From contig JASTWF010000034.1 of NCBI GenBank assembly GCA_030390025.1, forward strand, positions 2,418,001 through 2,482,000: DNA of 64,000 bases, read 5' to 3'. Numbering within the stretch: the first letter of the stretch is position 1; the number at the start of each line of letters is the position of its first letter. Shown piece after piece: positions 5,921-63,032 of the stretch. The stretch comes from Squalus acanthias. Taxonomy: Eukaryota. The notes beneath the pieces are model-generated. The model saw nothing but the letters and a program-made list of their open reading frames with translations. It was not told where the DNA came from and ran no database searches. The position numbers and the translations under genes were made by a program.

Positions 5921-5964
5921 GGCAGTTACACATGGTTTAGATACAGAGTAATGCTCCACTCACC

Positions 5965-8785
5965 TCACTTTAACACTCTGATATACCGCACACCATTCAT
6001 TTTAACACTCTGATATATCCCTCAGTTTAATCCTCTCTTACATATCGCTAACCTCTTACTGTAACAGACCGACATACCGCACTCACCTCACATTAACACT
6101 GTGATATACCCCGCAACCCTCAATGTAACACTCTGATATAATCCACACTGCTCACTGTAACACACTGATATACCCCACAACCCTCACTCTAACACTCTAG
6201 TATACGTCACTACACTCTGATATACCCACCATCCCTCACTGAAACACTCAGATACACCCCACCCTCTTAAATACCACAAACCTCTCACTGTAACACACTG
6301 ATATATCCCACACCCCTCATTGTAACACTCTGAGATGCCAAACACCCCTCACTGTAACACACTGATGATACACCCCACACCCCTCACTGATACATTCTGA
6401 TATACCCCACACCCCTCACTGTAACACTTTTATATTCCCCATGACCCTCACTGTAACACTCTCTGATATACACCAGACCCGTCACTGTAACACACTGATA
6501 TAGCCCACACCCCTCACAGTGACAATCTGATATACCCCACACCCCTCATTGTAACACTCTGATATACCCCACACCCCAGATTGTTACACTTATATACCCG
6601 ACACCCCTCACTCTAAAACTCTGATATACTTCACACCCCTCACTGTAAAACCTTGAGATAACTCAACACTGCTCATTGTATTACTCTGATATACACCATA
6701 CATACTCATTGTAACACTCTGATGTAAAACCACTACACTGACTATAACACTCTGATATAACCCACACACCCCTCACTTTAACACACCGATGTACCCCACA
6801 CCCCTCACTGTAACACATCGATATACCCCACACCCCACATTGTCACACTCTGATATAATCCACACCCCTCACTGTAACACTCTGATATATTCCACGCTCC
6901 TCACTGTAACACTGTGTTATACACCACACCCCTCACTGTAACACTGTGATACAACCCCTCACTTTAATCCTCTCTCACATTCCCAAAACTCTCACTGTAA
7001 TAGACCGATATACCCCACTCACCTCACTTTAACACTCTGATATATCCGACACCCCTCAATGTAATACTCTGATATACCCCACACCCCTCACTCTAACACT
7101 CTGATATAATCCACACCCCTCACTGTTACACTGATATACCCCACACCCCACATTGTAACACTCTGATATACCCCACACCCCTCACTGTTACACTGATATA
7201 CCCCACACCCCTCACTGTAACACTGATATACCACACACCGCTCACTGTAACACTGATATACCCCACACCCCTCACTGTAACACTGATATCCCCCACACCC
7301 CTCACTGTAACACTGATATACCCGACACCCCTCACTCTAACACTCTGATATACTTCACACCCCTCACTGTAAAACCCTGAGATAACCCAACATTGCTCAT
7401 TGTATTACTCTGATATAAACCATACATCCTCATTGTAACACTTTGATGTAAAGCCACTCCACTGACTATAACACTCTGATATACCCCACAAACCCCTCAC
7501 ATTAAAACACCGATATACCCCACACCCCTCACTATGATATAATCCACACCCCTCACTGTAACACTGATATAAACCACAACCCTCACTGTAACACAATGAT
7601 ATTCCCCACACCCCTCACTGTAACACTGATATAAACCACAACCGTCACTGTAACACAATGATATACCCCACACCCCCCACTCTAACATTCTGGTATACCC
7701 AACACCCCTCACTGTAACACAATGATATACCCCACACCCCTCACTCTAACATTCTGGTATACCTCACTACATTCTGATGTAGCCACACCGCACACTGCAA
7801 CACTCAGACACACCCCACTCTCGTTCATACCCCATAACTCTAACTGTAACACACTGATATACCCCACACCACTCATTGTAACACTCTGATAAACCCCGTA
7901 CACCTCACTGGAACACCCTGAGATACCGAACACCCCTCACTGTAACACTCTGATGATAAATCCCACACCCCTCATTGTAACATTCTGATATAACACTCAC
8001 CCGTCACTATAATAATCTGTTATACCCCACTCCCCTCACTGTAACACTCTGAAATAAACCACACCCCTCACTGTAACACTCTGATATACCACACACCCCT
8101 CACTGTAACATTATGATGTATCCCACACCTCTCACTGTAAATCTATGATATTACACACACTCCTGACTGTAACCCTCTCCTACATACCCCAAACCTCTCA
8201 ATGTAACACACCATTATACCCCACTCCCCTCACTGTAACACTCTCTGATATACTCCATACCCCTCGTTGTAACACTCTGATATAGCCCACAACCCTCGCT
8301 GTAAAACTGTGATATACCCAACAACCATCACTTTAACACTCTCTGATACGCCACACCTCTCACTGTAACACTCTGATATACCCCACACCCCTCGCTCTAA
8401 TACTGTAATATATCCCACAGCCTTCACTGTAACACTCTGTTATACCCCACACCCCTCGCTGTAATACTGTGATATACCCCACATAACTCTCTGCAAGACA
8501 CTGATAAACCCCACACTCTTCACTGTAACACTCTGATATACCCCACACCCCTCACAGTAACACCTATATACCCCACACCCCTCATTGTAACACTCTGATA
8601 TACCCCAACCTCCTCACTGTAACACTCTGATACACCCCGCAATGTAATCCTCTCTTACATACTGATATACCCCACACCACTCACTGTAACACTGATATGC
8701 CCCACACCCCTCACTGTAACACTCTGATACACCCCTCACTGTAATCCTCTCTTACACACTGATATACCCCACACCACTCACTGTT
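5965..8785. repeat. ~30-32 bp minisatellite (ccccacacccctcactgtaacact[ct]gatata)n
   Basis: Direct tandem repetition over ~2.8 kb. Confidence 0.96.
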
Positions 8786-8994
8786 GTCACTGCCACATTA
8801 GTACCATGGGCTTTACTTATGGTCATATGTGATACTTTATCAAGCACCTTTTGTAAGGATAGGGAAAATGGGAACGTGTGAGTAGTATCAATCATACAAA
8901 CATAGAATTGGTTACCCAAGTTGTGTTGACAATTTGACGCCCCACTCTAATAACAGGTCTGGTTTCAATCAATGAATTATAAAATCAGTGATTT

Positions 8995-11419: not shown

Positions 11420-13103
11420 TGTAAGGGTTTGCGTGCGTGTCTCTCAGCCTGTGAGATTCGCGCGGCTCTGTGCAGCCTGTGTGTCAGTGCGGGTTTAGGC
11501 CTTGTTGCATGTTCTGGTCACCAGCCAGTCTGGGAACACTAGACACACCTGTGAGTGGTTCGAATCACTCGCCCTTACGGTTCTAGACACTGGACTTAGA
11601 TGCGAGAGCAGTAATGGAGATGAAACTCATGTAGACTCGGTTGAATGGTACGAAATGGAAAAATCTTTATTGCATAATATTTAAGATTACGAAATACATG
11701 TCATAAGCACAGATTAATGACAGTACAATCTTACACGCAGTTATGTAGCTAATTCTAGGGAAACGAGGAACGAACGACACACCGTAAATGGGGGCACACA
11801 TTACAAGTATCCTTAATACTTAAACCCTCCCCTATCAATATCTGTCCTAGCTAGATTCGTAGGATTCGAGACTCATGCTCACCACTCGTGATAACTCGGA
11901 GAAATTCCGAATAGCTGATCGGATGTTTTCACCGCAGCACCCACGTGTCGATCAGGGGGTCTCCTGGCCCCACTTGTTTACTTGCTTCTGCTCCGGCTAG
12001 CAGGCTGGAACGTCTGTTGTTATGAAGATCTGTGTTGGTTGGTTTCACGTACCAGTCAACACTTAAGAGAATAATCTCTCGGTGTCCGTCATGAGGATCT
12101 GCCCTGATGGGTTTCACAGATCAGTCAATATCTCAAAGAAGAATCTTCCGGCGTCCGTTCTTTAAAGTTCAAAGAAGTCTTCCTGGCAAGGAGAAATGTC
12201 TATTCGACCTACAGGCGCGGCCGGGGCTTACTGACCGTGGCGCTAAGTATGGTCTTCGTCTCTTCTCATCTCATCTCATCTCTTCTCGGGCCTTTGGTTC
12301 CGATGCCGGTTACCAACACAGGTCTTCGTGACACGACACGAGGTAGATCCGAACGGATCACAAAGTTCAACAGTCTTTTAAAAGAGACACCAGGCAAACA
12401 GGAACAAGACGGCGAGTCAAGAACACAGGAGCAGCCACGAGGATGAACACCAGCAAGATAAGAGGATAAGAGAGAGATGGACGGTTGGAGCTTGTAATTA
12501 TAGTACAAAATCTTCCGTTTCCCGCCCAACCTTAATGTCTTTTCCTTTTGTTAGGGTTTGGCGCTCAAATGTCTTGTATAGGTGATCTCCGGTTTTAATG
12601 GGTTGCGGGGCTACTCGTGAATGTCTGAGTACCTGTAAATTTTTCTCCCATTGTTAAATCGGTCGGTGTTCTCCCTGGAGGGGTTTTGGGGCTTCCAAGT
12701 GTTTTCTGTAACTACCCGCTAACGGCTCTCTCATCGTAGAGTCGTTGGGATTTTACATATTAATGTCTTTGGATGGGCCCTTGATTACTTGGTACAATAG
12801 CCTTTATTCGTACCCGGGAGACCGATTTCAGTATCTATGTGTATACTGCAAACCCATGATGTCTCGTGTATTATCTTCAATGTGCTGAATCTTAATCGAT
12901 CTTGCACAAATGTTTATTGGAACGCCATCTTGTCTGTCTGTCGAAAAGTCTAGAATGTTCCGCCACGAGGTGCGGCGGCCATTTTACAGGCTGCTTGTGT
13001 CCACTTTGAAAACCTGACAGCATTCTGCTGAAATAAAGCTGTTTGAACGAAACTATGTGTTTTCTCCTTATTTATAAAATCGCGATATATTGCAAATTCT
13101 ACA
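11420..13103 (-). repeat. 3' LTR (1684 bp)
   Basis: Direct repeat of 19170-20853; minus-strand AATAAA at 11666-11671. Confidence 0.97.
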
Positions 13104-13552: not shown

Positions 13553-15904
13553 TTACACGGTGCTTTCATCGTGCACGCGCACGTAACGTTCTCGCCACTC
13601 TCCCGTGTTTTCATGCTTGGTGAGGCGTTTATCTCTTTTACAATGGACGACCAATAGGTACACTACAATGAAAACTTGGCATACGACTAAAATGTGGGAG
13701 GCTATTCTGATCCATGAAGGCACTTCAATATTGGTGAACAGATTCCACCACGGTGGAATTACTATATCCAGAATGTCTGTCCCTATTTCGACAGTTTTCT
13801 GTTCTAATGTGTAAAAATGTTTCTGTGACACCGCGACGGCTTTTAAAAGCTTGGTGAGGTGTTCAGGGAGAGGGGGAATGATGTATCCGAAATGCGCGAC
13901 GAATCGCTGCAAGTCGGTGAAATTCTCTTTTACTGTGAGATGAACAGTGGATGGTTCAGGGATTGGGACAATTCGCTGTTGTGCTACTTGAACTTCCGCC
14001 CTGGGTTTGAAACAGAAACTGCTGTCACTCACCGGACACCGGCTACGGTTTCCATGCTGGTAGTGTTGCGCTGCAGTGGTAACACAATATGTTCCACCCC
14101 CGATGTATGCTACCTGCGGAGGCACATGATCTTGTGCCATTGCCTCCATGGTGCAATTCATGGACTTGGCGCCAGCCGTTCTGAACCCGCACTGTGGTGT
14201 TAAAAAGGCATTCAAGTGCTGGGGGCACAGTATTATGTGTGCTCCCCTGCCACGACAACCAGAGAGATCTGTACCTGTCATCGTTTGCTCCCAGCGGATG
14301 ACGTAGGGTGGAACCGCTGCATAGCGAATGTGGGCTCCCCCCTGAATGACACCAATGTTCTCTACCCGATACACCGGGGCGGGCTTTGCTGTGTCGCCCA
14401 AAACCGGCATACGTAAAACTATACCCATAATGGTATGGTTTGATCGTCCACAGTCCACGGGGACTGGGTATGCTTCTGAAGCTAGCCTGAGCTGGCACGG
14501 GCTTAATGCGTTCTGAAAAGGGTGGAGCGCCCGCAGGTGTTTGTTACTTATCCAGGACGGGACCAAACCTTGTTTTAAATCCTCCAAATTACTGCGGCCC
14601 TCGCCCAGTAACCACGCCCCGTAAAGCACGCACACCTCGTTCTGCGCAGCTTGATCGGATGCATTCCGATCTTCCCTAATCAGGGCATTTACCGTTCTCG
14701 CGTGTTTCTCTAGTTCAGCTATTATTTCTTTTAAATGGAGAGTCATGGCTTGGTCCTCGTGTAAACCCGACCCAACCACTTTATTTTCATCTGTGAGAAT
14801 GTCTTTTAATTGCGTTTTTAAGCCATTAATCTGGGTCTGCAGCTCCACACTGTCTAGAGCGTTGACCACAGATGTACCTGTGTTGAAAGCAGTGAACGCG
14901 TCGTTCACAACACCCCTTCTTTGCCTCCCTACTTGATCCGAAACTTCATGTGGTGCGGTGTACAAACTTGTTTTATCAATTTCCGCAAAATCGAATTCGT
15001 AAAATTGTCTGAACATCTTGGTCAACAGGACCTGATACAACTGTTCCGTCTTTTTGGGGCACCACTCTGTTAACCGCACCTCGGTGAGATTTAAAATCAC
15101 CGAGGCCACCGCGTAATGTACTCCCTGAAATAGTATCTGGTCTGTGGGGACCAGTACCAAACCATTCCCGGGTCCCTTACTAGTTTTAGGGCACCCTTCT
15201 TCCTTAGCTAGAACCACCGGAATCGTGGGCGGGGCTTTGCGTGGGCGCGTAATGAGTTCAGTGGCATTTACCGGGATCGAAGAGTATGGGGCTCCGCACC
15301 CCCTGGTGCTTGCATCCCACCTCATCCCCTGTCCGTTATCCTGCCATTGATTAATGAAAAATATGGAGATGCCTTTGGGGCAAGCGTACTTTGACCCCCA
15401 CATGCATACATACATTCCCTCATCCGGTTCCCACCATTTGTCCCAACAGACTCTCACTTGTCCGTTTGTCCCCGTAATTGTCCGATGGGTATTATTACCC
15501 AGTCGTTCCCACTCGACCGAAGAGTTCCTCATAGTTTTGCTCAGCTTTCGCAGCCACCACCATCGGCTCAATGGGACATTCCCACTACAAGTCAAACAAA
15601 TCCGTTTGCCGACGGTGACGCTGATCCTGGGTGCGATGATCCTTACTTTGGGGCACATTAAAGAAGTCTCTTGGTAGGCAAACCCCGATGTGCTGGAATA
15701 CTCAGTCGAGTTCGTTCCCAGCCATCCTGGCCACCTTCCCTTGTGGAAATAGGTGGTGGTCTCCTCAGCCTCCCGTTTTCCGGTCCCATCCACCGCGATG
15801 GGGGCCGTGTCCCCGGAGCATCCAAACACCACGACATCCTTGGTGCGGCCTCGATAGGCCAATCCACATCCGATTGCCGCGAGCAATACTAGAATTCGTT
15901 CCAT
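13553..15904 (-). CDS. env: Envelope/class I fusion glycoprotein with N-terminal Ig-like domain (783 aa from MERIL; ORF open from 16063)
   Basis: Signal peptide MERILVLLAAIGCGLA; furin site RQRR (14915-14926); fusion peptide plus heptad repeat; Cys-rich region; C-terminal TM (ILVVCQVFIVVYLLVV); tail with YVRV. Confidence 0.88.
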   Translation of the reverse strand: MERILVLLAAIGCGLAYRGRTKDVVVFGCSGDTAPIAVDGTGKREAEETTTYFHKGRWPGWLGTNSTEYSSTSGFAYQETSLMCPKVRIIAPRISVTVGKRICLTCSGNVPLSRWWWLRKLSKTMRNSSVEWERLGNNTHRTITGTNGQVRVCWDKWWEPDEGMYVCMWGSKYACPKGISIFFINQWQDNGQGMRWDASTRGCGAPYSSIPVNATELITRPRKAPPTIPVVLAKEEGCPKTSKGPGNGLVLVPTDQILFQGVHYAVASVILNLTEVRLTEWCPKKTEQLYQVLLTKMFRQFYEFDFAEIDKTSLYTAPHEVSDQVGRQRRGVVNDAFTAFNTGTSVVNALDSVELQTQINGLKTQLKDILTDENKVVGSGLHEDQAMTLHLKEIIAELEKHARTVNALIREDRNASDQAAQNEVCVLYGAWLLGEGRSNLEDLKQGLVPSWISNKHLRALHPFQNALSPCQLRLASEAYPVPVDCGRSNHTIMGIVLRMPVLGDTAKPAPVYRVENIGVIQGGAHIRYAAVPPYVIRWEQTMTGTDLSGCRGRGAHIILCPQHLNAFLTPQCGFRTAGAKSMNCTMEAMAQDHVPPQVAYIGGGTYCVTTAAQHYQHGNRSRCPVSDSSFCFKPRAEVQVAQQRIVPIPEPSTVHLTVKENFTDLQRFVAHFGYIIPPLPEHLTKLLKAVAVSQKHFYTLEQKTVEIGTDILDIVIPPWWNLFTNIEVPSWIRIASHILVVCQVFIVVYLLVVHCKRDKRLTKHENTGEWRERYVRVHDESTV

Positions 15905-16201: not shown

Positions 16202-17356
16202 TTAAATTCTGAGAAGGCTGCTGCGAGCTCTTCCCGACGGTGGGAGGGCTCTGACCTTTTCCTCTGATCTGCCGCAGCCTGTTGCTGCACTGACCCCTTC
16301 CTCTGATCTGCCGCAGCCTGTTGCTGCTGCGATGGGGCCGGGCTGTATCTGGGCTGCCTTAACCTTGAGCCTACGCCTTGGGACAGTCTGGGGCCATACC
16401 CACATCTTCCTGGGCTGGGGTTCTCTACTTGACCTACGGGGAGTTGTCGGGGGCAGGAATCCCATGACCGACGTACCGGGTTCCGAGACTTCCACCGGGA
16501 CGACCTGTGGTTCCACCACAGTCGCTGGCTCCGCCTCCGCTGACTCCGCCTCCCTAACCTCGGGACTTGCAGCTTGTGGCTCCGCCCTGCTCGGCCCAGC
16601 AGGCGGCCCTTCACTCGCGATCCCTGCCTCCCCCGAGGGCGGGACGTTCAAAGCGGGCGGCTCGGGCTCGGAGGTTCTCACCGTCACTCCCTGTGGTCTC
16701 ACAGCGGCTGGCTCCGCCTCCCCTAGCTCCTCCCTCCTGTGTTCGGGACCTGCAGCCTCTGTGTCCACCCTGTGCGGATCTCCATCTGCAGCCCGTGTCC
16801 TCCCTATACCTAAAATGGGGGCGACCCTTTCGTTCCCCAAATCCCCCTCGTCTTCATCACTATCCTCATCTGACTCGAGTTCCCGGAATTCTCCCTCATC
16901 TGACTCCCAACCCCACAAAAATGCTTCATGATCTTCCAGGATGTCTCCTCCCCTGATGCAAGCTGCTTTGCCTGCCTGTGTGCCTTGTGGTCCTACCTGG
17001 GGCTGCGCTTCCCCACTCGCGGGGTTTACCCCTGTGGTTTTCCCTTGCGCACCTGGCTTGTACAGTTTGCACTGGTTTACATCCTCATACTCCCGGCTTT
17101 TGGCTACCCTGTAGGCTGCTTTTATCTCACTAAGCTGCGCTTCTAGCCTGAGCACGTCTAACTTTCCCATTGATCGGGCGTTCTCCTCCCGCAGGGCCTG
17201 CTCTCTAAGCTGCCCTTCCAGCCCATCTATTTTCCCTATTAAGCGGGCGTTCTCCTCCCGCAAGGCCTGCTCTTTTAACCTGGCCTCCTCACCGCAGACC
17301 CCTTCCTGTGCGTGTCTTTTAAAAGGACACAGGTAGGCAGGCTGCGTGGGCTCTAG
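16202..17356 (-). CDS. ORF2: coiled-coil/acidic/Pro-rich protein in frame with gag (probable readthrough extension, 384 codons)
   Basis: No stop from 17356 to 16205; same frame as gag; no protease, RT, RNase H or integrase motifs. Confidence 0.7.
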   Translation of the reverse strand, partial: LEPTQPAYLCPFKRHAQEGVCGEEARLKEQALREENARLIGKIDGLEGQLREQALREENARSMGKLDVLRLEAQLSEIKAAYRVAKSREYEDVNQCKLYKPGAQGKTTGVNPASGEAQPQVGPQGTQAGKAACIRGGDILEDHEAFLWGWESDEGEFRELESDEDSDEDEGDLGNERVAPILGIGRTRAADGDPHRVDTEAAGPEHRREELGEAEPAAVRPQGVTVRTSEPEPPALNVPPSGEAGIASEGPPAGPSRAEPQAASPEVREAESAEAEPATVVEPQVVPVEVSEPGTSVMGFLPPTTPRRSSREPQPRKMWVWPQTVPRRRLKVKAAQIQPGPIAAATGCGRSEEGVSAATGCGRSEEKVRALPPSGRARSSLLRI

Positions 17357-19165
17357 TCATTGGGTACTATTAGACGGTCCTGCGGCACCTACGGGGCCGG
17401 TAGCAACCGCCACCTTTCCATGTGCGCTCAATAATTTGCGCATGGCTCCCAACACTACTTCGAGGTCGTCGGGAGGGGTGGGTGCACTAGCTTCCCTAGC
17501 AGGGACAGGCGTCTGGGCTCGGGCTGCGGGAATTTTATCCCTGGAATCCTTCCAAGGGTTCCTGCAGTTCTTGCGCCAGTGCCCTGTCTTCCCACACCCG
17601 TAACAAGCATTACTTGCCTGCGGGGCGCGATTACCCTCCTGATGCCACTCCCTTTGATACGGGGCTGCGGGTCGTACCTCATGTACTTTTCCCTTAAGGG
17701 GACGTGTTCCCATACCCCTTATATTGCGATATCCTAACGTGAGTCGATTCAAGACCGACTCTTCCGTAATGTTGGGGTCATTGGGATCAAACCATGCTTT
17801 TGCCTGCTCTCTGACGGCTGGTAAACTGTTGGCTACTATGCACCTAAGCCAATGATTTAAACCGGCGCCGTCCATATCGTCGCGCTCTAGCGCACCTAGA
17901 CAGCTGCGCTGATATACTGGCCACAGCCTGTCGGCAAAAACCTTCGGGGGTTCTCCCTCCATCTGCACTGTCTGTCCCAAACTAGCAAACGGACCTTCAT
18001 CGTCCGCCCCCAACACTTCCAGGACCTCATTCTTTAATGCCTCATAAGTCTTGGTTCCCCTCTTGCTCTCGCCCGAGAGACACTGAAGGATTGAACTGCC
18101 TAACGAAAACAACAGCATTTTTGCTGTTTCCCCATCATCGCAGCCGTTAATGGCTGCGGTTTGCTCAACTTCTCTGAAATGTACGGAAGGGTCGTCTAAC
18201 TCGGTCAGCTTCCGTACATGATTTATCATAACTCTCAGCTGGTGTGAGCTGTGAGGCAACACAAGCTGGCCGAGGAGATCCCCTGGTTCCTCCCCACCGT
18301 TTCTGTTTGGGCCCCTTTTTATACCCGTTACTGGATACAACGGTCCCTTTTCCACTTCTTTCTCAATGGGCTCTTTCGTTTCTTCCACTACTTCCTCCCT
18401 TACCCAGGTTTCCGAATAGCTGGGTGGCGCGGAGGGCGCAGTGGCTAATACTTCCTCTGCTTTACTTGGTGGGGACTTCTGAAACTCCTCTTTTACTAGC
18501 GGCTGGTGTGCTGACGGACTGATAAGGCACACCATGCCGTGCGCTTTGTTCACGGCCTTTTTGAGGTGCTCTATCTCCTTTTGGCAGGCGCTATGATCGG
18601 CTCCCTGAAACTTATCCTCAAGGGCCAAATTATATGCCGCCCTAACCCCCGTTAAGCTCTCTTCCTGAGTTCTTATCTGGGCAGCTTGGCGGGCACATCG
18701 TTCCTTTAATCTGCCCTCATTTAACTTTGCCTCAGTGACCTGGCACTCGAGGTAATCTATCCTTGTTTTATGTTGACTGGAGATTTCCTGGCGTTCTTGG
18801 TGCAGCGCACTTAAATTCCTAATGAGCAATTCCCCTCCAGAGACCTTCTCATCCATTTCTCCCTCTAAATGACTGATTCGAGCTGTTAGCGCTGTAATGA
18901 CCTGGTTTGAAATCTGGACCTGCCTTTTGTAACACATTAGCCAGACTGCTTTCTCGATTGTCTTTTTATGTTCCTTACTATCTGTCCACCTTTCGGCTGC
19001 CTCTAGTGGACTCTTATCCGCTAACAATTCACTTATCCATTTCTTAGTTAGATTAACCTTTCCGAACACATAATCTGCTATCTTTTCCTTCATAACATTT
19101 CGTACAGTCACACCAAAGTCTAACACACTACCCTCTCGCTGCCAGTGTCCTGCCGCGGTCGCCAT
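17357..19165 (-). CDS. gag: Gag polyprotein (602 aa)
   Basis: First ORF after 5' LTR; coiled-coil N-terminal half, PSAPPSY late-domain-like motif, capsid-like QMEGEPPKVFADRL, CCHC knuckle CYGCGKTGHWRKNC. Confidence 0.93.
   Translation of the reverse strand: MATAAGHWQREGSVLDFGVTVRNVMKEKIADYVFGKVNLTKKWISELLADKSPLEAAERWTDSKEHKKTIEKAVWLMCYKRQVQISNQVITALTARISHLEGEMDEKVSGGELLIRNLSALHQERQEISSQHKTRIDYLECQVTEAKLNEGRLKERCARQAAQIRTQEESLTGVRAAYNLALEDKFQGADHSACQKEIEHLKKAVNKAHGMVCLISPSAHQPLVKEEFQKSPPSKAEEVLATAPSAPPSYSETWVREEVVEETKEPIEKEVEKGPLYPVTGIKRGPNRNGGEEPGDLLGQLVLPHSSHQLRVMINHVRKLTELDDPSVHFREVEQTAAINGCDDGETAKMLLFSLGSSILQCLSGESKRGTKTYEALKNEVLEVLGADDEGPFASLGQTVQMEGEPPKVFADRLWPVYQRSCLGALERDDMDGAGLNHWLRCIVANSLPAVREQAKAWFDPNDPNITEESVLNRLTLGYRNIRGMGTRPLKGKVHEVRPAAPYQREWHQEGNRAPQASNACYGCGKTGHWRKNCRNPWKDSRDKIPAARAQTPVPAREASAPTPPDDLEVVLGAMRKLLSAHGKVAVATGPVGAAGPSNSTQ
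19147..19164 (-). promoter_or_regulatory. Primer binding site (tRNA-Arg type)
   Basis: TGGCGACCGCGGCAGGAC, 5 nt after the 5' LTR; complementary to ...GTCCTGCCGCGGTCGCCA, the vertebrate tRNA-Arg(TCG) 3' end as I recall it. Confidence 0.85.
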
Positions 19166-19169
19166 TTTC

Positions 19170-20853
19170 TGTAAGGGTTTGCGTGCGTGTCTCTCAGCCT
19201 GTGAGATTCGCGCGGCTCTGTGCAGCCTGTGTGTCAGTGCGGGTTTAGGCCTTGTTGCCTGTTCTGGTCTCCAGCCAGTCTGGGAACACTAGACACACCT
19301 GTGAGTGGTTCGAATCACTCGCCCTTACGGTTCTAGACACTGGACTTAGATGCGAGAGCAGTAATGGAGATGAAACTCATGTAGACTCGGTTGAATGGTA
19401 CGAAATGGAAAAATCTTTATTGCATAATATTTAAGATTACGAAATACATGTCATAAGCACAGATTAATGACAGTACAATCTTACACGCAGTTATGTAGCT
19501 AATTCTAGGGAAACGAGGAACGAACGACACACCGTAAATGGGGGCACACATTACAAGTATCCTTAATACTTAAACCCTCCCCTATCAATATCTGTCCTAG
19601 CTAGATTCGTAGGATTCGAGACTCATGCTCACCACTCGTGATAACTCGGAGAAATTCCGAATAGCTGATCGGATGTTTTCACCGCAGCACCCACGTGTCG
19701 ATCAGGGGGTCTCCTGGCCCCACTTGTTTACTTGCTTCTGCTCCGGCTAGCAGGCTGGAACGTCTGTTGTTATGAAGATCTGTGTTGGTTGGTTTCACGT
19801 ACCAGTCAACACTTAAGAGAATAATCTCTCGGTGTCCGTCATGAGGATCTGCCCTGATGGGTTTCACAGATCAGTCAATATCTCAAAGAAGAATCTTCCG
19901 GGGTCCGTTCTTTAAAGTTCAAAGAAGTCTTCCTGGCAAGGAGAAATGTCTATTCGACCTACAGGCGCGGTCAGGGCTTACTGACCGTGGCGCTAAGTAT
20001 GGTCTTCGTCTCTTCTCATCTCATCTCATCTCTTCTCGGGCCTTTGGTTCCGATGCCGGTTACCAACACAGGTCTTCGTGACACGACACGAGGTAGATCC
20101 GAACGGATCACAAAGTTCAACAGTCTTTTAAAAGAGACACCAGGCAAACAGGAACAAGACGGCGAGTCAAGAACACAGGAGCAGCCACGAGGATGAACAC
20201 CAGCAAGATAAGAGGATAAGAGAGAGATGGACGGTTGGAGCTTGTAATTATAGTACAAAATCTTCCGTTTCCCGCCCAACCTTAATGTCTTTTCCTTTTG
20301 TTAGGGTTTGGCGCTCAAATGTCTTGTATAGGTGATCTCCGGTTTTAATGGGTTGCGGGGCTACTCGTGAATGTCTGAGTACCTGTTAATTTTTCTCCCA
20401 TTGTTAAATCGGTCGGTGTTCTCCCTGGAGGGGTTTTGGGGCTTCCAAGTGTTTTCTGTAACTACCCGCTAACGGCTCTCTCATCGTAGAGTCGTTGGGA
20501 TTTTACATATTAATGTCTTTGGATGGGCCCTTGATTACTTGGTACAATAGCCTTTATTCGTACCCGGGAGACCGATTTCAGTATCTATGTGTATACTGCA
20601 AACCCATGATGTCTCGTGTATTATCTTCAATGTGCTGAATCTTAATCGATCTTGCACAAATGTTTATTGGAACGCCATCTTGTCTGTCTGTCGAAAAGTC
20701 TAGAATGTTCCGCCACGAGGTGCGGCGGCCATTTTACAGGCTGCTTGTGTCCACTTTGAAAACCTGACAGCATTCTGCTGAAATAAAGCTGTTTGAACGA
20801 AACTATGTGTTTTCTCCTTATTTATAAAATCGCGATATATTGCGAATTCTACA
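19170..20853 (-). repeat. 5' LTR (1684 bp)
   Basis: Direct repeat of 11420-13103, followed by PBS and gag. Confidence 0.97.
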
Positions 20854-21890: not shown

Positions 21891-22197
21891 ATGATTAAAT
21901 ACGTGTAATAATGATTTAAAAAGCGTCATCATGTTTTATTAATGGTCATAATGATTTATAAAGGGTTAGAAAATATCTGTAAAGTGGTGTAATTATTTTA
22001 AAGCATTTTAATGGGTTTTAATGATTAATAAATTCCTGGTGCCGGCTCTCCTCCAACCTGTGCTGGGCTGCTCGATCTCCTGTGGGCCGGGCCGGGCCAG
22101 GCTGCTCCGCCACGCCGCCGGCTCTCACAGGAACCGGGACTCCAGATGCCGCCCTCCAGACACTCACCTCCTGCCGCCAGGGAAAGGCCCCGAGTGA

Positions 22198-22712
22198 CAG
22201 CCGCCATCTTTGTCCGTATCCCCAGAGCCACGATTTTTGTGCGGGGCCCCAGAGTGGCCATCTGTGTGCGTGACCCCAGAGCCGCAATCTTTGTGCGGGG
22301 CACAGGTGCCGCCATTATTGTGCGTGGCGCCAGAGCCGCCATTTAGGTGCAGGTCCCCTGAGCCGGCATCTTTCTCCGGGTCCCCAGAACCGCCATCTTT
22401 GTGCGGGGCGCGGGTGCCGCTATCATTGTATGGGTCGCCGTGGCCGCCATATTTGTGCTGGGCTCCAGTGCCTCCATTTTTGTCTGGTGCTTCAGAGCAG
22501 CCATCTTTGTGCGGAGCCCCAGAGCCGCTATCTTTGTGCGGAGACCCAGAGCCGCCATCTTTGTGCGGGGCCCCGGAGCCGCCATTATTGTGCGTGTCCC
22601 CGGACCTGCCATTTTAGTGCTGGACCACCAGAGGCGACATCTTGCTGCTGTGCGCGGGGGCCGCCATCTTTGTGCTGGGCCCCAGAGCCGCCATCTTTGT
22701 GCGGGGCGCCAC
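22198..22712. repeat. 27-bp GC-rich minisatellite (gccgccatctttgtgcggggccccaga)n, ~19 units
   Basis: gccgccat-type motif recurs every 27 nt (e.g. 22524, 22551, 22578). Confidence 0.93.
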
Positions 22713-37651: not shown

Positions 37652-37990
37652 AAGAAAGGAAGAAAGAATTGAATTGATACGGCGCTTTTCACGATCTTGG
37701 GATGTGCTTTCAAGTCAATGACGTCCTTCCTTTTGAAGTGAAGTCACTGTTGTACTGTCGGAAACTTGGCAGCCAATTTGAGCACAGCAAGCTCCCACAA
37801 ATAGCAATGTGATAATGACCAGATAATCTGCTTTAATGATGTTGATTGAGATAAATATTAGCCAGAACACCGGGGTTAACTCTGCTGCTCTTCTTCAATA
37901 TAATTCCATGGGATCTTTTACGTCCAACTTATAGAACAGACAGTTCTAACGTCTCATCTGAGACATGGCACCGCTGACAGTGCAGTGCTC
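37652..37990 (-). mobile_element. Deu-like SINE, reverse orientation
   Basis: Reverse complement of ~30230-30570. Confidence 0.78.
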
Positions 37991-38298
37991 CCTCAGTACT
38001 GACCCTCTGACAGTGCAGTGCTCCCTCAGGACTGCCCCTCTGACAGTGCACTGCTCCATCAGTACTGCCCCTCTGACAGTGATGCGCTCCCTCAGTACTG
38101 CCCCTCTGACAGAGATGCGCTCCCTCAGTACTGCCCCTCTGACAGTGCAGTGCTCCCTCAGTACTGCCCCTCTGACAGTGATGCGCTCCCTCAGTACTGC
38201 CCCTCTGACAGTGCAGTGCTCCCTCAGTACTGCCCCGCTGACAGAGATGCACTCCCTCAGTACTGCACCTCCAACAATGCAGCACTTTCTCAGTACTG
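37974..38298. repeat. 33-bp minisatellite (ctgacagtgcagtgctccctcagtactgcccct)n, ~10 units
   Basis: Direct tandem repetition. Confidence 0.95.
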
Positions 38299-38301
38299 GC
38301 T

Positions 38302-41300
38302 TGAGTGCAGTTTGTCATGGAGTGCAGCTTGGAACCGACTGTTAAGGTGCGAGTTTGGTGAGTGAGGGAGTTCAGGGAGGAATGTGTTCCTTTCTTTTTC
38401 TCTCTTTGTCAGCTTCCAAGACCCGGTCAGTATTTCTGCAGTCCAGTCGTTAAAGTAAAAGTAAGGTCTCGAGTTTAGAGCAAGTAGTGCTTAAAGGGAA
38501 GTCAGGTCCCTAGTGTATTTAATATTCTTTAATTTAAAGGGAGTAAATTATGGGTAGCACATGGCAGGGCAGCTCGGCAGCGTGGAGTGCTCCTACTGTG
38601 CTATGTTGGAAGTCAGGGACACTTTAGGTGTCCAGGGCGGACACATGTGCAGGAAGTGTCTCCAGCTGCAGCTACGCGAAATCCGCGTTTCGGAGCTGGA
38701 GCTGCGACTGGAGTCACTGTGGAGCATCCGCGAAGCTGAGATCTTCGTGGATAGAACATTTAACGAGGTGGTCACACCGCAGGTAAAGAGTGCACGGGCA
38801 GATAGGAAATAGATGACCCCCAGACAGTGTAAAAGAACTAGGAAGGCAATGCAGGAGTCCCCTGGGTCCATCTCCCTCTCCAACAGATTTTCCGTTTTGG
38901 ATACTGATGGGGGAGATGGTTTCTCAGGGGAATGCAGCAAGAGCCATGTCCGTGGCACTACGAATGGCTCAGCTGTACAGGAGGGGGCGGGGTAAAGAGT
39001 GGGAGAGCAATAGTGACAGGGGATTCTATCGTAAGGGGAACAGATAGATGTTTCTGTGGCTGCAGACGTGACTCCAGGATGGTATGTTGCCTCCCTGGTG
39101 CCAGGTTCAAGGATGTCACTGAACGGCTGCATTGTATTCTGAAGGGGGAGGGCGAACTGTCAGAGGTCGTAATCCACATTGGTACCAACGACATGGGTAG
39201 AAAGAGGGTTGAGGTCCTTCAACAAGAATTTAGGGAGCTAGGTAGCAGATTAAAAAGCAGGACCTCAAAGGTTGTAATCTCTGTATTACTCCCGGTGCCA
39301 CTTGCTAGTGAGTATAGGAATAGGAGGATAGAGCAGATGAATGAGTGGCTAAAGAGTTGGTGCAGGAGGGAGGGCTTTAGTTTCCTGGATCACTGGGTCT
39401 GCTTCTGGGGAAGGTGGGACCTGGACAAGTCGGACGGGATGCACCTCAACCGGAACGGGACCAACATCCTTGCGGGGAGATTTGCTAGTACTGTTGAGGC
39501 GGGGGGGGGCGGGTGTAATCTAACTTGGCAGAGGGATGGGATACGGAGTGGAGCTGTAGTAGGGGGTGATGCACAGCCAAATATAGAGGAAAAAACAAGT
39601 CAGCCTGGAAGTCAGAGCAAATATGTATCGGCACACGGCTGTATGGCATGGCTGGTGACATTTATTTTAATTCAAGGAGTCTTGCGAGTAAGGCAGATGA
39701 ATTGAAGGTGTTGATGAAAACAAGGGAGTATGATATTGTTGCTATCACAGAGACATGGTTGAGGGAGGGGCAGGACTGGTAGCTCAATATTCCGAGGTAT
39801 AGAACCTTCAGGCGCGACAGAGGTGGGTGTAAAAGCGGAGGGCGTGTCGCAATATTAATCAAGGAGACAATTACTGCTTTAACGAGGGATGATATCTTAG
39901 CAGGTTCCTCTAAGGAGGCCATATCGGTAGAACTTAAAAACAAAAAGTGGGCAAGCTCTTTGCTGGGAGTGTACTGTTGGGCCGCAAACAGTCAGGGGGA
40001 GATAGAGGAAAAGATATGTAGGCAAATCTCACAGAAGTGTCGAAATAATAGTTTAATAATAGTAGGGGATTTCAACTTCCCCAATATTAAGTGAGATAGT
40101 CGGAGTGTGAAAGGCTTAGAGGGTGCGGAATTCTTAAAGTGCATCCAGAAGAGCGTTTTGAGCCAGCATGTAGAATGTTCTACCAGACAGGGAGCGGTTC
40201 TGGACCTAATTCGAGGGAATGTAGCTGAGCAACTGGTGGAAGTGTCATTAGGAGAGCATTTTGGTGACAGTGACCATAATTCGTTGAGATTCAAGGTAGT
40301 CATGGAAAAGCAGAAAAATGGACCGGAAATAAAGCTTCTAAATTGGGGGAAGGCCGATTTTAATATGATAAGGCAGGATCAGGCCAAAGTGGACTGGGAT
40401 CAGCTACTTGTAGGAAAATCCACATCAGAGCAGTGGGAGTCTTTCACAAAGTAAATAGAGAGAGTATAACGCCAACATGTTCCCGTAAAGGTCAAAGGTG
40501 GGACCAACAACCCCAGGGAACCCTGGATGTCAAGTGATATACAAGAATGGATTCGGAAAAAAGAGAGGTTTTTGGCAGATACAAAGGAGTAAAAACAGTG
40601 GAAGCCCTAGTGGAGTATAGGAAGTGCACGGGGGTACTTAAAAAGAAATTAGGAAAGTGAAGAGGGGGTATGAAAAAAAACACTGGCGGGTAAAAGAAAG
40701 GAAAATCCCAAGCTGTTTTATAAGTATATTAAGGGCAAGAGGATAACCAGGGAACGAGTAGGGCCTATTACTAGATTGCAGTTTGTCACGGAGTGCAGCT
40801 TGGAACAGAGTGTTAAGCTGCGAGTTTGGTGAGTGAGGGAGTAAATCTTAAAGATTAAACTCTTATTTTTATAAATTCTAGTCTTGTGTGCTTGCAATTA
40901 GCATTTAAATTTACTGTTTCAAGTTTTAAGTTTCTTCCAGGCTTGGGCAGGGCTAAGCAAGCTCTGTGCTGTAGAGCAGGTGAGAGTAATTAATTAATTA
41001 ACTGGTCTAATCTGGTTCTGTAACTGCCAGAGAGATCACTTATTTAAATCTCAGCAGTATAAATAAGCGAGACTAGAGTGCAGTTTGTCACGGAGTGCAG
41101 ATTGGAACAGAGTGTTCAGCTGCGAGTTTGGTGAGTGAGGGAGTGAGGGAGGGAGGTGTTCCTCACTTTTTCAATATTTGTCAGCTTCCTGGTGCGGCGG
41201 CGGACCTGCATGAGGCGAGGTGGCGGCAGAGGGTTTAAAAGGCTCCAGAGACCAGGTAAGGCGGGACCAGTCTCCGAACTCGGAGGGAGGGAGGGAGAGA

Positions 41301-56559: not shown

Positions 56560-56815
56560 TTTAATCACTCCACCATTGGTGGCCATGCCTTCAGCTGCCT
56601 GGGCCCTAAGCTCTGGAATTCTGTCCGTAAACTTCTCTGCCTCTCTCTCCTCCATCAAGACGCTCCTTAAAAATTACCTCTTTGACCAAGCTTTTGGCTA
56701 TCTGCCCAAATATCTCATGCGGCTCGATGTCAAATGTTGTTTGATACACTCCTGTGAAGCGCCTTGGGACGTTTTACTACGTTAAAGGCGCTTTATAAAT
56801 ATAAGTTGTTGTGTT
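56560..56815 (+). mobile_element. L2 LINE 3' end
   Basis: gccttcagctgcctgggccctaagctctggaatt...gtgaagcgccttgggacg...gctttataaatataagttgttg. Confidence 0.75.
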
Positions 56816-56864
56816 TTGCTTATTTCCTATTTAAGAATTAACAATTAACTTTACGCCATTGTTT

Positions 56865-59800
56865 ATTGGCTATCATACACAATTTAACAATTAACTGTGA
56901 CAGTTTTACCCTGTGTATTGGTTATCATACCCAATTTAACAATTTACTGTGACAGTTTTACCCTGTGTATTGGTTATCATACCCAATTTCACAATTAACT
57001 GACAGTTTTACCCTGTGTATTGGTTATCATACCCAATTTAACAATTAACTGTGACAGTTTTACCCTGTGTATTGGTTATCATACCCAATTTAACAATTAA
57101 CTGTGTCAGTTTTACCCTGTGTATTGGTTATCATATCCAATTTAACAATTAACTGTGACAGTGTTACCCTGTGTATTGGTTATCATACCCAATTTAACAA
57201 TTAACTGAGACAGTTTCACCCTGTGTATTGGTTATCATACCCAATTTAACAATTAACTGTGACAGTTTTACCCTGTGTATTGGTTATCATACCCAATTTA
57301 ACAATTAACTGTGACAGTTTTACCCTCTGTATTGGTTATCATACCCAATTTAACAATTAACTGACAGTTTTACCCTGTGTATTGGTTATCATAACCAATT
57401 TAACAATTAACTGTGACAGTTTTACCCTGCGTATTGTTATCATACCCAATTTAACAATTAACTGACAGTTTACCCTGTGTATTGGTTATCATACCCAATT
57501 TAACAATTAACTGACAGTTTTACCCTTGTATTGGTTATCATATCCAATTTAACAATTAACTGTGACAGTTTTACCCTCTGTATTGTTATCATACACAATT
57601 TAACAATTAACTGACAGTTTTACCCTGTGTATTGGTTATCATACCAATTTAACAATTAACTGGACAGTTTTACCCTGTGTATTGGTTATCATACCCAATT
57701 TAACAATTAACCTGACAGTTTTACCCTGTGTATTGGTTATCATACACAATTTAACAATTAACTGACAGTTTTACCCTGTGTATTGGTTATCATACCCAAT
57801 TTAACAATTAACTGTGACAGTTTTACCCTGTGTATTGTTATCATACCCAATTTAACAATTAACTGTGACAGTTTTACCCTGTGTATTGGTTATCATACCC
57901 AATTTAACAATTAACTGTGACAGTTTTACCCTGTGTATTGGTTATCATACCCAATTTAACAATTAACTGTGACAGTTTTACCCTGTGTATTTGTTATCAT
58001 ACCCAATTTAACAATTAACTGTGACAGTTTTACCCTGTGTATTGGTTATCATACCCAATTTAACAATTAACTGACAGTTTTACCCTGTGTATTGGTTATC
58101 ATATCCAATTTAACAATTAACTGTGACAGTTTCACCCTCTGTATTTGTTATCATACCCAATTTAACAATTAACTGACAGTTTTACCCTGTGTATTTGTTA
58201 TCATACCCAATTTAACAATTAACTGTGACAGTTTTACCCTGTGTATTGGTTATCATACCAAATTTAACAATTAACTGACAGTTTTACCCTGTGTATGGTT
58301 ATCATACCCAATTTAACAATTAACTGTGACAGTGTTACCCGGTATATTGGTTATCATACCCAATTTCACCATTAACTGTGACAGTTTTACCCTGTTTATT
58401 GGTTATCATACCCAATTTAACAATTGACTGTGACAGTTTTACCCTGTGTATTGGTTATCATACCCAATTTAACAATTTACTGTAACAGTTTTACCCTGTG
58501 TATTGGTTATCATACCCAATTTAACAATTAACTGTGACAGTTTTACCCTGTGTATTGGTTATCATACCCAATTTAACAATTAACTGACAGTTTTACCCTG
58601 TGTATAAGTTATCATACCCAATTTAACAATTAACTGTGACAGTTTTACCCTGTGTATTGGTTATCATACCCAATTTAACAATTAACTGTGACAGTTTTAC
58701 CCTGTATATTGGTTATCATACCCAATTTAACAATTAACTGTGACAGTTTTACCCTGTGTATTGGTTATCATACCCAATTTAACAATTAACTGACAGTTTT
58801 ACCTGTGTATTGTTATCATACCCAATTTAACAATTAACTGTGACAGTTTTACCCTGTTGATTGGTTATCATACCCAATTTAACAATTAACTGAGACAGTT
58901 TTACCCTGTGTATTGGTTATCATACCCAATTTAACAATTAACTGACAGTTTTACCCTGTGTATTGGTTATCATACCCAATTTAACAATTAACTGTAACAG
59001 TTTTACCCTGTGTATTGGTTATCATACCCAATTTAACAATTAACTGTGACAGTTATACCCTGTGTATTGGTTATCATACCCAATTTAACAATTAACTGTG
59101 ACAGTTTTACCCTGTGTATTGGTTATCATACCCAATTTAACAATTAACTGGACAGTTTTACCCTGTGTATTGGTTATCATACCCAATTTAACAATTAACT
59201 GACAGTTTTACTCTGTGTATTGGTTATCATACCCAATTTAACAATTAACTGTCACAGTTTTACCCTGTGTATTGGTTATCATACCCAATTTAACAATTAA
59301 CTGTGACAGTTTTACCCTGTGTATTGGTTATCATACTGAATTTAACAATTAACTGGGACAGTTTTACCCTGTGTATTGGTTATCATACCCAATTTAACAA
59401 TTAACTGACAGTTTTACCCTGTGTATTGGTTATCATACCCAATTTAACAATTAATTGACAGTTTTACCCTGTGTATTGGTTCTCATACCCAATTTAACAA
59501 TTTACTGTGACAGTTTTACCCTCTGCATTGGTTATCATACCCAATTTAACAATTAACTGACAGTTTCACCCTGTGTATTGGTTCTCATACCCAATTTAAC
59601 AATTAACTGTGACAGTTTTACCCTCTGCATTGGTTATCATACCCAATTTAACAATTAACTGACAGTTTTACCCTGTGTATTGGTTATCATACCCAATTTA
59701 ACAATTAACTGACCGTTTTACCCTGTGTATTGGTTATCATACTGAATTTAACAATTAACTGTGACGGTTTTACCCTGTGTATTGGTTATCATACCCAATT

Positions 59801-59865
59801 TAACCATTACCTAACAGTTTTACCCTGTGTATTGGTTATTATACCCAATTTAACAATTAACTAAC
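56865..59865. repeat. 50/52-bp AT-rich satellite, ~58 copies
   Basis: ccaatttaacaattaact[gt]gacagttttaccctgtgtattggttatcatac tandem array. Confidence 0.98.
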
Positions 59866-60107
59866 TTTATGCTCTTGTGTATTATTTATCAAGTCAAATT
59901 TAAATAACTATAGCTTTCGTTTCCCCTCTATGCTTAATATGTCAATTTGTACAAATAATTGCAACGGTCTGAATAAAATAATAAATAAGACCAGGAGTAG
60001 GTCCTGTGCTGCAACCTGTTTATTAGTTTTCATGTCCAATTTATCAATCAACAGTGCCTTTTTTCCTCGCTGTATTGGTTACCACTTCCATTTTAAAACC
60101 ACCTGAA

Positions 60108-62064: not shown

Positions 62065-62935
62065 GAGTGTTTGACACTTACATGTCGAGAGATCTTTATT
62101 CTGTATTCATCCCATGCTGTACCCGAGCTGGTTGTGCTTCATTGGGTAGTGTCAAGGGAGCTGTACGCTGCACATGCTGTATTAGAGGGAACTTTGCATG
62201 TCACGCGCGCTGTACCTGCTCTGCGAGTGTTTGAGTGGACAGTGTAAAGGGAGCTTTACTCTGTATCGATCTGTCTAACCGGTGCTATACCTGCCCTTGG
62301 ACTGTTTGATTGGGCATTGTAAAGGGAGCTTTATTCTGTATCTCTCTATCTAACCCGTGCTGTACCTGCTCTGCGAGTGTTTGAGTGGGCAGTGCAGAGG
62401 AAGGTTTAGTCTGTATCTCTCTATCCAAACCGTGCTGTACCTGCCCTTGGACTGTTTGTTTGGGCAGTGTAAAGGAAGCTTTATTCTGAATCTAACCCGT
62501 GCTATACCTGCCCTTGGACTGTTTGTTTGGGCAGTGTAAAGGGAGCTTTACTCTGAATCTAACCCGTGCTATACCTGCCCTTGGACTGTTTGATTGGGCA
62601 GTGTAAAGGGAGCTTTACTCTGTATCTCTCTATCTAACCGGTGCTATACCTGCCCTTGGACTATTTGATTGGGCATTGTAAAGGGAGCTTTACCATGTAT
62701 CTCTCTATCTAACCCGTGCAATACCTGCCCTTGGACTGTTTGATTAGGCAGTGTAAAGGGAGCTTTACTCTATATCTCTCTCTCTAACCCATACTGTACC
62801 TGCCCTTGGACTGTTTGATTGGACAGTGTAAAGGGAGCTTCACTCTGTATCTCTCTATCTAACCGGTGCTATAACTGCCCTTGGACTGTTTGATTGGGCA
62901 GTGTAAAGGGAGCTTTACTCTGTGTATAACTCATG
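62065..62935. repeat. 67/75-bp minisatellite (tgtaaagggagctttactctgtatct..aacccgtgctatacctgcccttggactgtttgattgggcag)n
   Basis: Direct tandem repetition; related fragments at ~1590, ~1817 and ~5930. Confidence 0.92.
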
Positions 62936-63032
62936 CTACATGCAGGAAGATTGTGACAAATGGAATTCAATCCGGAGAAGTGTGAGGTAATGCATTTGGG
63001 GAGGGCTAACAAGTCAACGGATCCTGCACTGA

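Follow-up and report, generated by a model that had tools for sequence, protein, structure and literature searches.

A UGA-CUAG stop codon at the gag-pol junction of a Squalus acanthias endogenous retrovirus family and in its pol-less offshoot

What does a stop codon do in the middle of a frame that stays open on both sides of it? The question is raised by a provirus on the minus strand of a 64,000-nucleotide stretch of Squalus acanthias DNA (contig JASTWF010000034.1, positions 2,418,001 to 2,482,000; hereafter the window, to which all coordinates refer; host genome 3.7 Gb). Its gag (17357-19165) encodes 602 amino acids from the ATG at 19165, with a probable N-terminal coiled-coil region, a capsid and one CCHC knuckle (a zf-CCHC match below the Pfam cut-off), and ends in CAA TGA CTA GAG, the stop at 17359-17357 standing in the type II read-through context TGA CTAG (17353-17359). 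A sequence-only reading had proposed that read-through here, aided by a hairpin, fuses Gag to a second open reading frame, ORF2, and its description of the frame was accurate: 384 further codons are open in the gag frame, down to 16202, ORF2 has no ATG near its start (its first Met is codon 63), and the fusion would comprise 987 residues (602 + 1 + 384).

The stop at the junction and its relatives

Loci picked by their Gag alone carried TGA CTAG in 30 of 30 cases, 20 running into protease and 10 into ORF2, and in the longer sisters protease, reverse transcriptase (RT), tether, RNase H and integrase follow in frame. A second sample of 40 pol-type loci, picked by downstream sequence, included 39 with the junction; all 39 had TGA CTAG, and the frame was open for at least 1440 codons in 20 of them. 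Genome-wide, an exact pattern found 1259 pol-type junctions. The pol-bearing relatives were thus found to have the same TGA CTAG at their gag-pol junction, as the sequence-only reading had asked (39/39 plus 20/20 loci). A stop common to the pol-bearing sisters is the inherited junction of the family, not a private nonsense change; the latter explanation was ruled out by the same context across pol-bearing and pol-less copies, and sense codons occurred in only two isolated copies (TGG and TCA) among the ORF2-type loci fetched. We conclude from these comparisons that TGA CTAG is the gag-pol junction of this retrovirus family, and that the leaky stop probably serves it in making Gag-Pol. The same context on both sides also supports the proposal that the Gag-Pol switch was kept while its cargo changed.

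A search with a coelacanth homologue gave three further families (B, C and D, 59-76% Pol identity). In 29 of their 30 loci the aligned place is taken by TGA; families B and C have CTA or CTG next to it and family D has AGA. The conserved protease N-terminus occupies the stretch from the stop to the first Met of pol, which argues against a simple start of pol at that Met. The third base of the Thr codon was a purine in all 66 matched pol-type loci (of 70), a weak sign, as only four families are represented and transitions dominate. At its C-terminus, family D pol (locus L242) carries a basic run and PLRFRL, which we take to resemble the BET-binding motif of gammaretroviral integrase. Judged by these junctions, read-through is very probable in pol-type copies and, with slightly less assurance, highly likely at the ORF2-type junction.

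The same region bears on separate expression of ORF2, from a spliced or internally started RNA made by way of a pyrimidine tract and an AG at +40/41 or +50/51. A pyrimidine-rich run does stand ahead of these AGs, and older ORF2 lineages have CTGAC over the stop, which presumably is branch-point-like. Precedents exist in foamy viruses, which make pol from a separate start (PMC8278194), and in Tca2, which has a junction promoter (PMC2194720; these papers and those below are cited for the portions consulted). We nevertheless consider this route highly improbable: the first Met of the window copy comes only at codon 63, the conserved protease N-terminus of pol-type copies lies upstream of the AG, family C has no AG there, and the stop stays in frame in a leaky context. 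Moreover, 17140-17395 is covered without splicing by one contig of a probable RNA run, and the 15 joints shown, of 18 in all, lie elsewhere, although the RNA contigs show neither strand nor level and the lack of an env splice among those joints indicates low sensitivity for junction splicing.

From its sequence and predicted folds, the junction resembles a type II viral read-through site. Such sites (UGA CUA or UGA CGG with an extended stem-loop, as in Sindbis, VEEV and CTFV; PMC13517186) share the UGA CUA G context; here too UGA is followed by CUA and the downstream frame is in phase without a start of its own, and the structure predicted for pol-bearing copies closes about 200 nucleotides from +13/+24, against 177 from +16 in Sindbis. 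Sites of this kind also have a conserved 3' stem-loop from about +9 to +16. Unlike those of Sindbis, VEEV and CTFV, the present site lies at a retroviral gag-pol junction. The gammaretroviral precedent invoked earlier, UAG-G with an H-type pseudoknot from +12, is less apt, since the stop here is UGA CUA G; nearer are the alphavirus-type UGA-CUA signals and the UGA-separated gag-pol of fish and frog retroviruses. In SSSV, ZFERV and RMEV (PMC13517186) and XtERV-S (PMC8278194), suppression has been deduced, as here, from an in-frame UGA between gag and pro-pol, and the SSSV hexamer TGA AGA is that of family D (PMC13517186). Families A-C here differ from all four in their CUA/CUG context, F-like env and a derivative lineage with replaced cargo. 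The retroviral contexts in the same review are UAG GGA/GAU/GGC and UGA AGA/CGA/AGU, with no UGA CUA and no lokiretrovirus in the parts examined (PMC13517186). Literature searches found no UGA-CUA retroviral gag-pol junction (subscription journals and Repbase lay outside their scope), and term searches of PMC12440569 and PMC9040795 found no stop-codon read-through in the text covered.

Origin of ORF2 and the RNA after the stop

In alignment with pol-type copies, the match of the window ends at 17325 and resumes at 17082. By this comparison ORF2 is made of pol codons 1-11 (the protease N-terminus, 17325-17356), a captured insert of about 81 codons (17083-17324) and a 294-codon tail that runs from the last integrase residues onward (16202-17082). 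ORF2 had been called a non-Pol frame, which was not borne out: 17356-17325 and 17082-16202 match the sister pol frame, and only 17324-17083 is foreign. The idea of a different cargo needs a correction: about 305 of the 384 codons derive from pol, and what is new is a coiled coil from sister-family Gag.

Sequence identity places the source of the insert in the Gag coiled coil of sister family C, with 78-83% nucleotide identity in the window copy and 90-92% over 225 nucleotides in the oldest ORF2 form, whose insert matches nothing in that form's own gag. That the insert was copied from the gag of the element itself was rejected (no blastn match in six of six copies; 22% amino acid identity over 54 residues), and inserts fell on one side of a branch against seven donor gags in 88% of bootstrap trees. 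The insert is internally duplicated and was modelled as one helix of 71 residues (23-93) followed by disorder; among the loci fetched it was seen only in the pol-less lineage. A protein search with ORF2 residues 8-100 gave no match among 511 candidates of 211-672 residues, and a pattern for a donor with another 3' sequence gave 0 matches. Identity of ORF2 with the 'smc' gene of lokiretroviruses was ruled out, since in the lokiretrovirus supplement smc is the label for the front part of smc-gag-pol.

In the oldest ORF2 form the Gag-derived piece is longer and the tail is like that of family B; shortening and swapping, in frame, came later. On alignment, the window's junction into a family A tail is such a later in-frame swap, with 7 nucleotides of microhomology at the 3' insert junction. 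At least 150 ORF2-type copies (e.g. L002 and L029) keep the older, family-B-like tail start KQDRNLQ. The tail is acidic, rich in Pro, Ala and Gly, and predicted to be disordered where modelled; a conserved motif, RRSxRxPQPxxxW (16445-16400 in the window; L237, L240, L243, L221), is common to the otherwise unalignable tails of families A, B and C and of the oldest ORF2. In a tree of 88 tails, pol-type and ORF2-type copies were mixed, with at least 15 label changes, which indicates that the tail was repeatedly borrowed from helpers. On the plus strand, an antisense frame of 241 codons crosses the tail (16206-16931), with 228-318 codons open in pol-bearing copies too; no codon signal was found in the antisense frames over the tail.

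A 14-nucleotide pattern combined with the tail gave 1413 matches, against 6 for the control; of the first 100 listed, 99 were ORF2-type, from which we take the pol-less lineage to have over 1,000 copies; two tighter patterns gave 697 and 151 matches. Among 36 older-looking junctions chosen from the pattern list, 35 were ORF2-type. Their Gag is 42-49% (five loci) or about 60-84% identical to that of the window, and with the near-identical copies the lineage spans three grades of Gag backbone (42-49%, about 60-84% and near 100%). The context TGA CTR G was kept in 92 of 95 copies, the exceptions being one TAA, one TGG and one TGA TTG. The first 30 of these copies had been picked by similarity across the stop and the other 65 without regard to it; 63 of those 65 had TGA CTR G. 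ORF2 was open for at least 290 codons in 29/30, 26/30 and, in older copies, 20/35, and length changes common to several copies preserve the frame. With its enzymes lost, its copies young and numerous, and pol-bearing partners in the genome, the lineage has the marks of helper dependence, and the comparison identifies the provirus as a member of a helper-dependent offshoot whose ancestor family has UGA-separated gag and pol.

In pol-type copies the first 215 nucleotides after the stop fold strongly in families A and C and more weakly in B (z -1.3 to -6.4 in A-C), with no such fold in D, and they were the lowest of 29 windows along one copy. An alignment fold pairs CCTGTG (+24-29) with CACRGG (+195-200) and CAGCC (+13-17) with +210-214 in all four families; the basal pairs show too little variation for co-variation to prove them. 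The +1 to +215 structure (L034, L052, L067, families B and C) covers the protease N-terminus and shows some double-sided changes in its inner stems, and family D, with TGA AGA, has no long structure by z-score. The pol-less deletion removed the far arm of this ancestral structure of about 200 nucleotides, and the donor gag happens to supply CACAGG.

The hairpin drawn in the sequence-only reading can form in the window (17287-17350, pairing +7 to about +70; minimum free energy -29.6 kcal/mol), with pol codons 1-11 supplying its 5' arm (CAGCC, +13-17; CCTGTG, +24-29) and CCTGTG (17333-17328) pairing with CACAGG (17310-17305). Its strength is unremarkable. The local hairpin had z -1.29 (22 of 200 shuffles as good), the +1 to +70 fold z -1.53 in the window (25/300) and -2.26 in a copy with the common allele (8/300), and 12 of 85 windows of 70 nucleotides along the element scored as low as the hairpin. 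The A at 17303 in the 3' arm as first drawn is a minor allele (7/91 copies). The predicted probability of the CCTGTG:CACAGG pair was 0.97-0.99 in four copies of the large young type (TGCGG, 697 matches) and 0.89-0.99 in three TCCGG copies, compared with 0.01-0.5 in six copies with donor-like TCCTG, in which a competing local hairpin forms. Each of the two changes from TCCTG to TGCGG adds a pair to the 5' arm, which could reflect selection or hitch-hiking with a successful master copy. In a duplex test against the 5' arm, the first 40 nucleotides of the insert ranked among the best 3-7% of 1205 windows and donor entry windows among the best 28-79%, a weak signal. There is no need to derive the 3' arm from the 5' arm by inverted copying, as RHAQE/CACAGG aligns with donor gag.

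The stop context is conserved in the lineage and the hairpin is not. The hairpin, strong only in the youngest sub-lineage, appears to be a fold of that lineage, of borderline strength, and not the ancestral element; on the folding models it would be a late feature and at most a modifier, and that it stimulates read-through seems doubtful.

Selection on the fusion and its possible role

A codon model was fitted to 89 of the 95 copies, 6 frameshifted or unmatched copies having been dropped beforehand. The insert had an omega of 0.475 in the read-through frame (likelihood ratio test against omega 1, 34.8), with 0.93 and 2.2 in the other two frames and 0.35-0.49 in subsets; the same model gave 0.30 for the Gag coil and 0.33 for the capsid. 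Changes in the insert were distributed 97/65/128 over codon positions 1/2/3, and its single stop among the 89 copies was private. Codons 13-22, which hold the 3' arm of the hairpin, had an omega of 1.4 and the rest of the insert 0.38. These sequence statistics lend moderate support to selection on the coil; the tail lends none, one short common motif aside. We regard it as somewhat probable that the ORF2-type product is selected.

Several observations weigh against this. An allele-count test on the insert was not significant (omega 0.73, p 0.21, 50 copies), nor was the distribution of insert alleles found in at least two copies (29/20/32 by codon position, p 0.24). In the codon model the signal comes from recurrent changes, whose number recombination can raise, and a motif had been used to choose the copies. 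Since the tail is neutral (omega 1.09) and is traded with pol-type copies, its open frame adds no independent evidence; the same exchange may refresh the stop region. In addition, ORF2 is open for at least 290 codons in only 20 of the 35 older copies, hairpin pairing was inconsistent in 14 older copies (probability 0.01-1.0), and the UGA junction of Tca2, with a predicted structure, gave no read-through in a reporter (PMC2194720).

Such findings bring in the view that the junction is a passive relic, its stop context inherited and refreshed by helper recombination, its leaky translation perhaps real and its fusion without function. The frame would stay open through a tail borrowed from pol and in-frame microhomologies that favour rearrangements in multiples of three. 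The mixed tail tree, the tail omega, the allele counts, the 7-nucleotide microhomology and the often broken older copies fit this view, which we still consider unlikely: among the loci fetched the insert is confined to the pol-less lineage, 88% of bootstrap trees separate it by a branch from the seven donor gags, its changes are in excess at third positions, and it has one private stop in 89 copies, though the 6 dropped copies temper that count. An open but neutral tail could also point to selection at the RNA level, with read-through into the open frame shielding unspliced RNA from nonsense-mediated decay while the amino acids matter little. Read-through of 1-5% inhibits this decay (PMC5360307), and the tail is stop-free in most young copies while its residues are free to change. 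This is very unlikely as the explanation, as about 4 kb of env and long terminal repeat (LTR) follow the ORF2 stop, longer 3' untranslated regions weaken such protection (PMC5360307), and omega below 1 in the coil would be left unexplained.

The account we favour, and hold to be rather more probable than its denial, is that read-through continues, driven by context, to supply a minor Gag-X-ORF2 protein, and that the captured coil aids the RNA or protein in engaging helper particles in cis. It would have arisen in steps. Pol-bearing sisters have UGA in a CUA-G or CUG-G context followed by protease, RT, RNase H and integrase, and a few per cent of ribosomes at most would read through, helped in these copies by the structure of about 200 nucleotides. 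In the offshoot, recombination then swapped pol after codon 11-12 for a coiled-coil piece of sister-family Gag, rejoined in frame to the post-integrase tail with loss of the far arm of the structure. If UGA-CUR-G is leaky by context alone (UGACUAG allows at least about 1.3% read-through in human genes; PMC13517186), a minor Gag-X-ORF2 protein, of 987 residues here, would be made as an enzyme-less stand-in for Gag-Pol. The coil seems to be under moderate purifying selection in the read-through frame, which suggests that the product probably does something. More speculatively, this second coil may dock the fusion, with the RNA under translation, onto helper Gag or Gag-Pol or onto membrane, giving an advantage in cis.

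That cis role is a speculative extension of two comparisons. In Bik-1 the Gag coil is required for membrane association (bioRxiv 2024.03.25.586437). The mouse IAP 1-delta-1 element is a very successful non-autonomous endogenous retrovirus (ERV) in which a deletion created a novel gag-pol fusion ORF with a reported aid to retrotransposition in cis (PMC6466679); its fusion is constitutive and its Gag truncated, whereas the present element keeps an intact Gag, has a leaky stop to gate its fusion and carries a segment captured from another family. Read-through of non-enzyme cargo in a retroelement, as proposed here, also has a parallel in SIRE1, where env is expressed by stop-codon suppression, at a pol-env junction and in an unrelated, autonomous plant copia element (PMC2829016). 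A bolder version of the favoured account, which we put forward tentatively as a minority possibility, is that a parasite lineage kept the switch through several changes of Gag backbone so as to make an enzyme-less decoy at Gag-Pol stoichiometry, that this decoy carries a sister-family Gag coil and docks its own RNA on helper particles, and that a local stimulatory hairpin, with the same CCTGTG:CACAGG pairing, was rebuilt in the youngest and largest sub-lineage after the long-range arm was lost.

The provirus, its affinities and their meaning

The provirus is bounded by a 5' LTR of 1684 nucleotides (19170-20853, minus strand) and a 3' LTR (11420-13103, minus strand), with 7 mismatches between them in 1684 nucleotides, and the 4-nucleotide target duplication ATAG is present on both flanks. 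The gag start (19165-19147) overlaps the beginning of a primer-binding-site-like sequence just inside the 5' LTR. Downstream of ORF2, env (13553-15904, minus strand) has its own signal-peptide start, an Ig-like region, the basic cleavage site RQRR and a predicted fold like that of paramyxo- and pneumovirus F (Foldseek top match hPIV3 F, E 2.6e-11; model pLDDT 65). Weak Ig-like matches lie at 15904-15360, ahead of the F-like part. No Pfam domain scored above the cut-off for gag, ORF2 or env. Tandem proviruses with a common LTR are frequent among pol-bearing and pol-less copies alike (contigs C429, C3716, C2868, C18, C23, C1:143.66 Mb and C3:64.29 Mb). The window also holds simple repeats and minisatellites (periods of about 32, 27, 33, 52 and 75) and many dispersed repeat fragments (1-1300, 5950-8800, 22140-22710, 37900-38330, 56700-59950 and 62100-63000).

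The family looks like lokiretroviruses in its env, its tether and the layout of its Gag, and shares with them a probable coiled-coil Gag, a tether with RNase H and an F-like Env (PMC7947760). The pol-bearing sisters show the layout LTR-gag-pol-env with tether and second RNase H, and the Env model is consistent with the lokiretroviral type, related to paramyxo- and pneumovirus F and with a basic cleavage site. For the N-terminal 'smc' coiled coil of Gag, the modelled part is the homologous captured piece, a single helix of 71 residues. The RT scored 189 bits against the best gamma-type entry, 185 against foamy and 131 against Ty3, and in a tree of 49 rows, none labelled Loki, it grouped with retrovirus-like rows, apart from nine Gypsy-like rows, with the base poorly split. 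In the published supplement, read by eye, the gag of Loki-Sau and of Loki-Pyo ends in TGA CTAG in frame with the annotated pol; Loki-Bsp differs, with TGA CTA A and pol annotated in another frame, and several Loki elements are single gag-pol frames (PMC7947760). The main text of that paper, in the portion consulted, mentions neither readthrough nor shark (PMC7947760).

A UGA between gag and pol and deleted ERVs with fusion ORFs are already known; what is new here is their joint occurrence with a fusion that is gated, a coil that was captured from a sister family and a lineage that persists across Gag backbones. In a retrovirus group whose pol expression is not discussed in the papers searched, the junction suggests that gag-pol is switched by an alphavirus-type UGA-CUA-G signal with a long predicted 3' structure. 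Context and structure could be told apart in the natural series that it offers: the long structure is present in pol-bearing copies and absent from old pol-less ones, and young pol-less copies have a local hairpin. Should the fusion be functional, a recoding switch would have been reused to dose a captured assembly domain, and if the parasite-lineage reading is true, UGA-CUAG read-through would be the usual, unremarked gag-pol strategy of fish F-env retroviruses.

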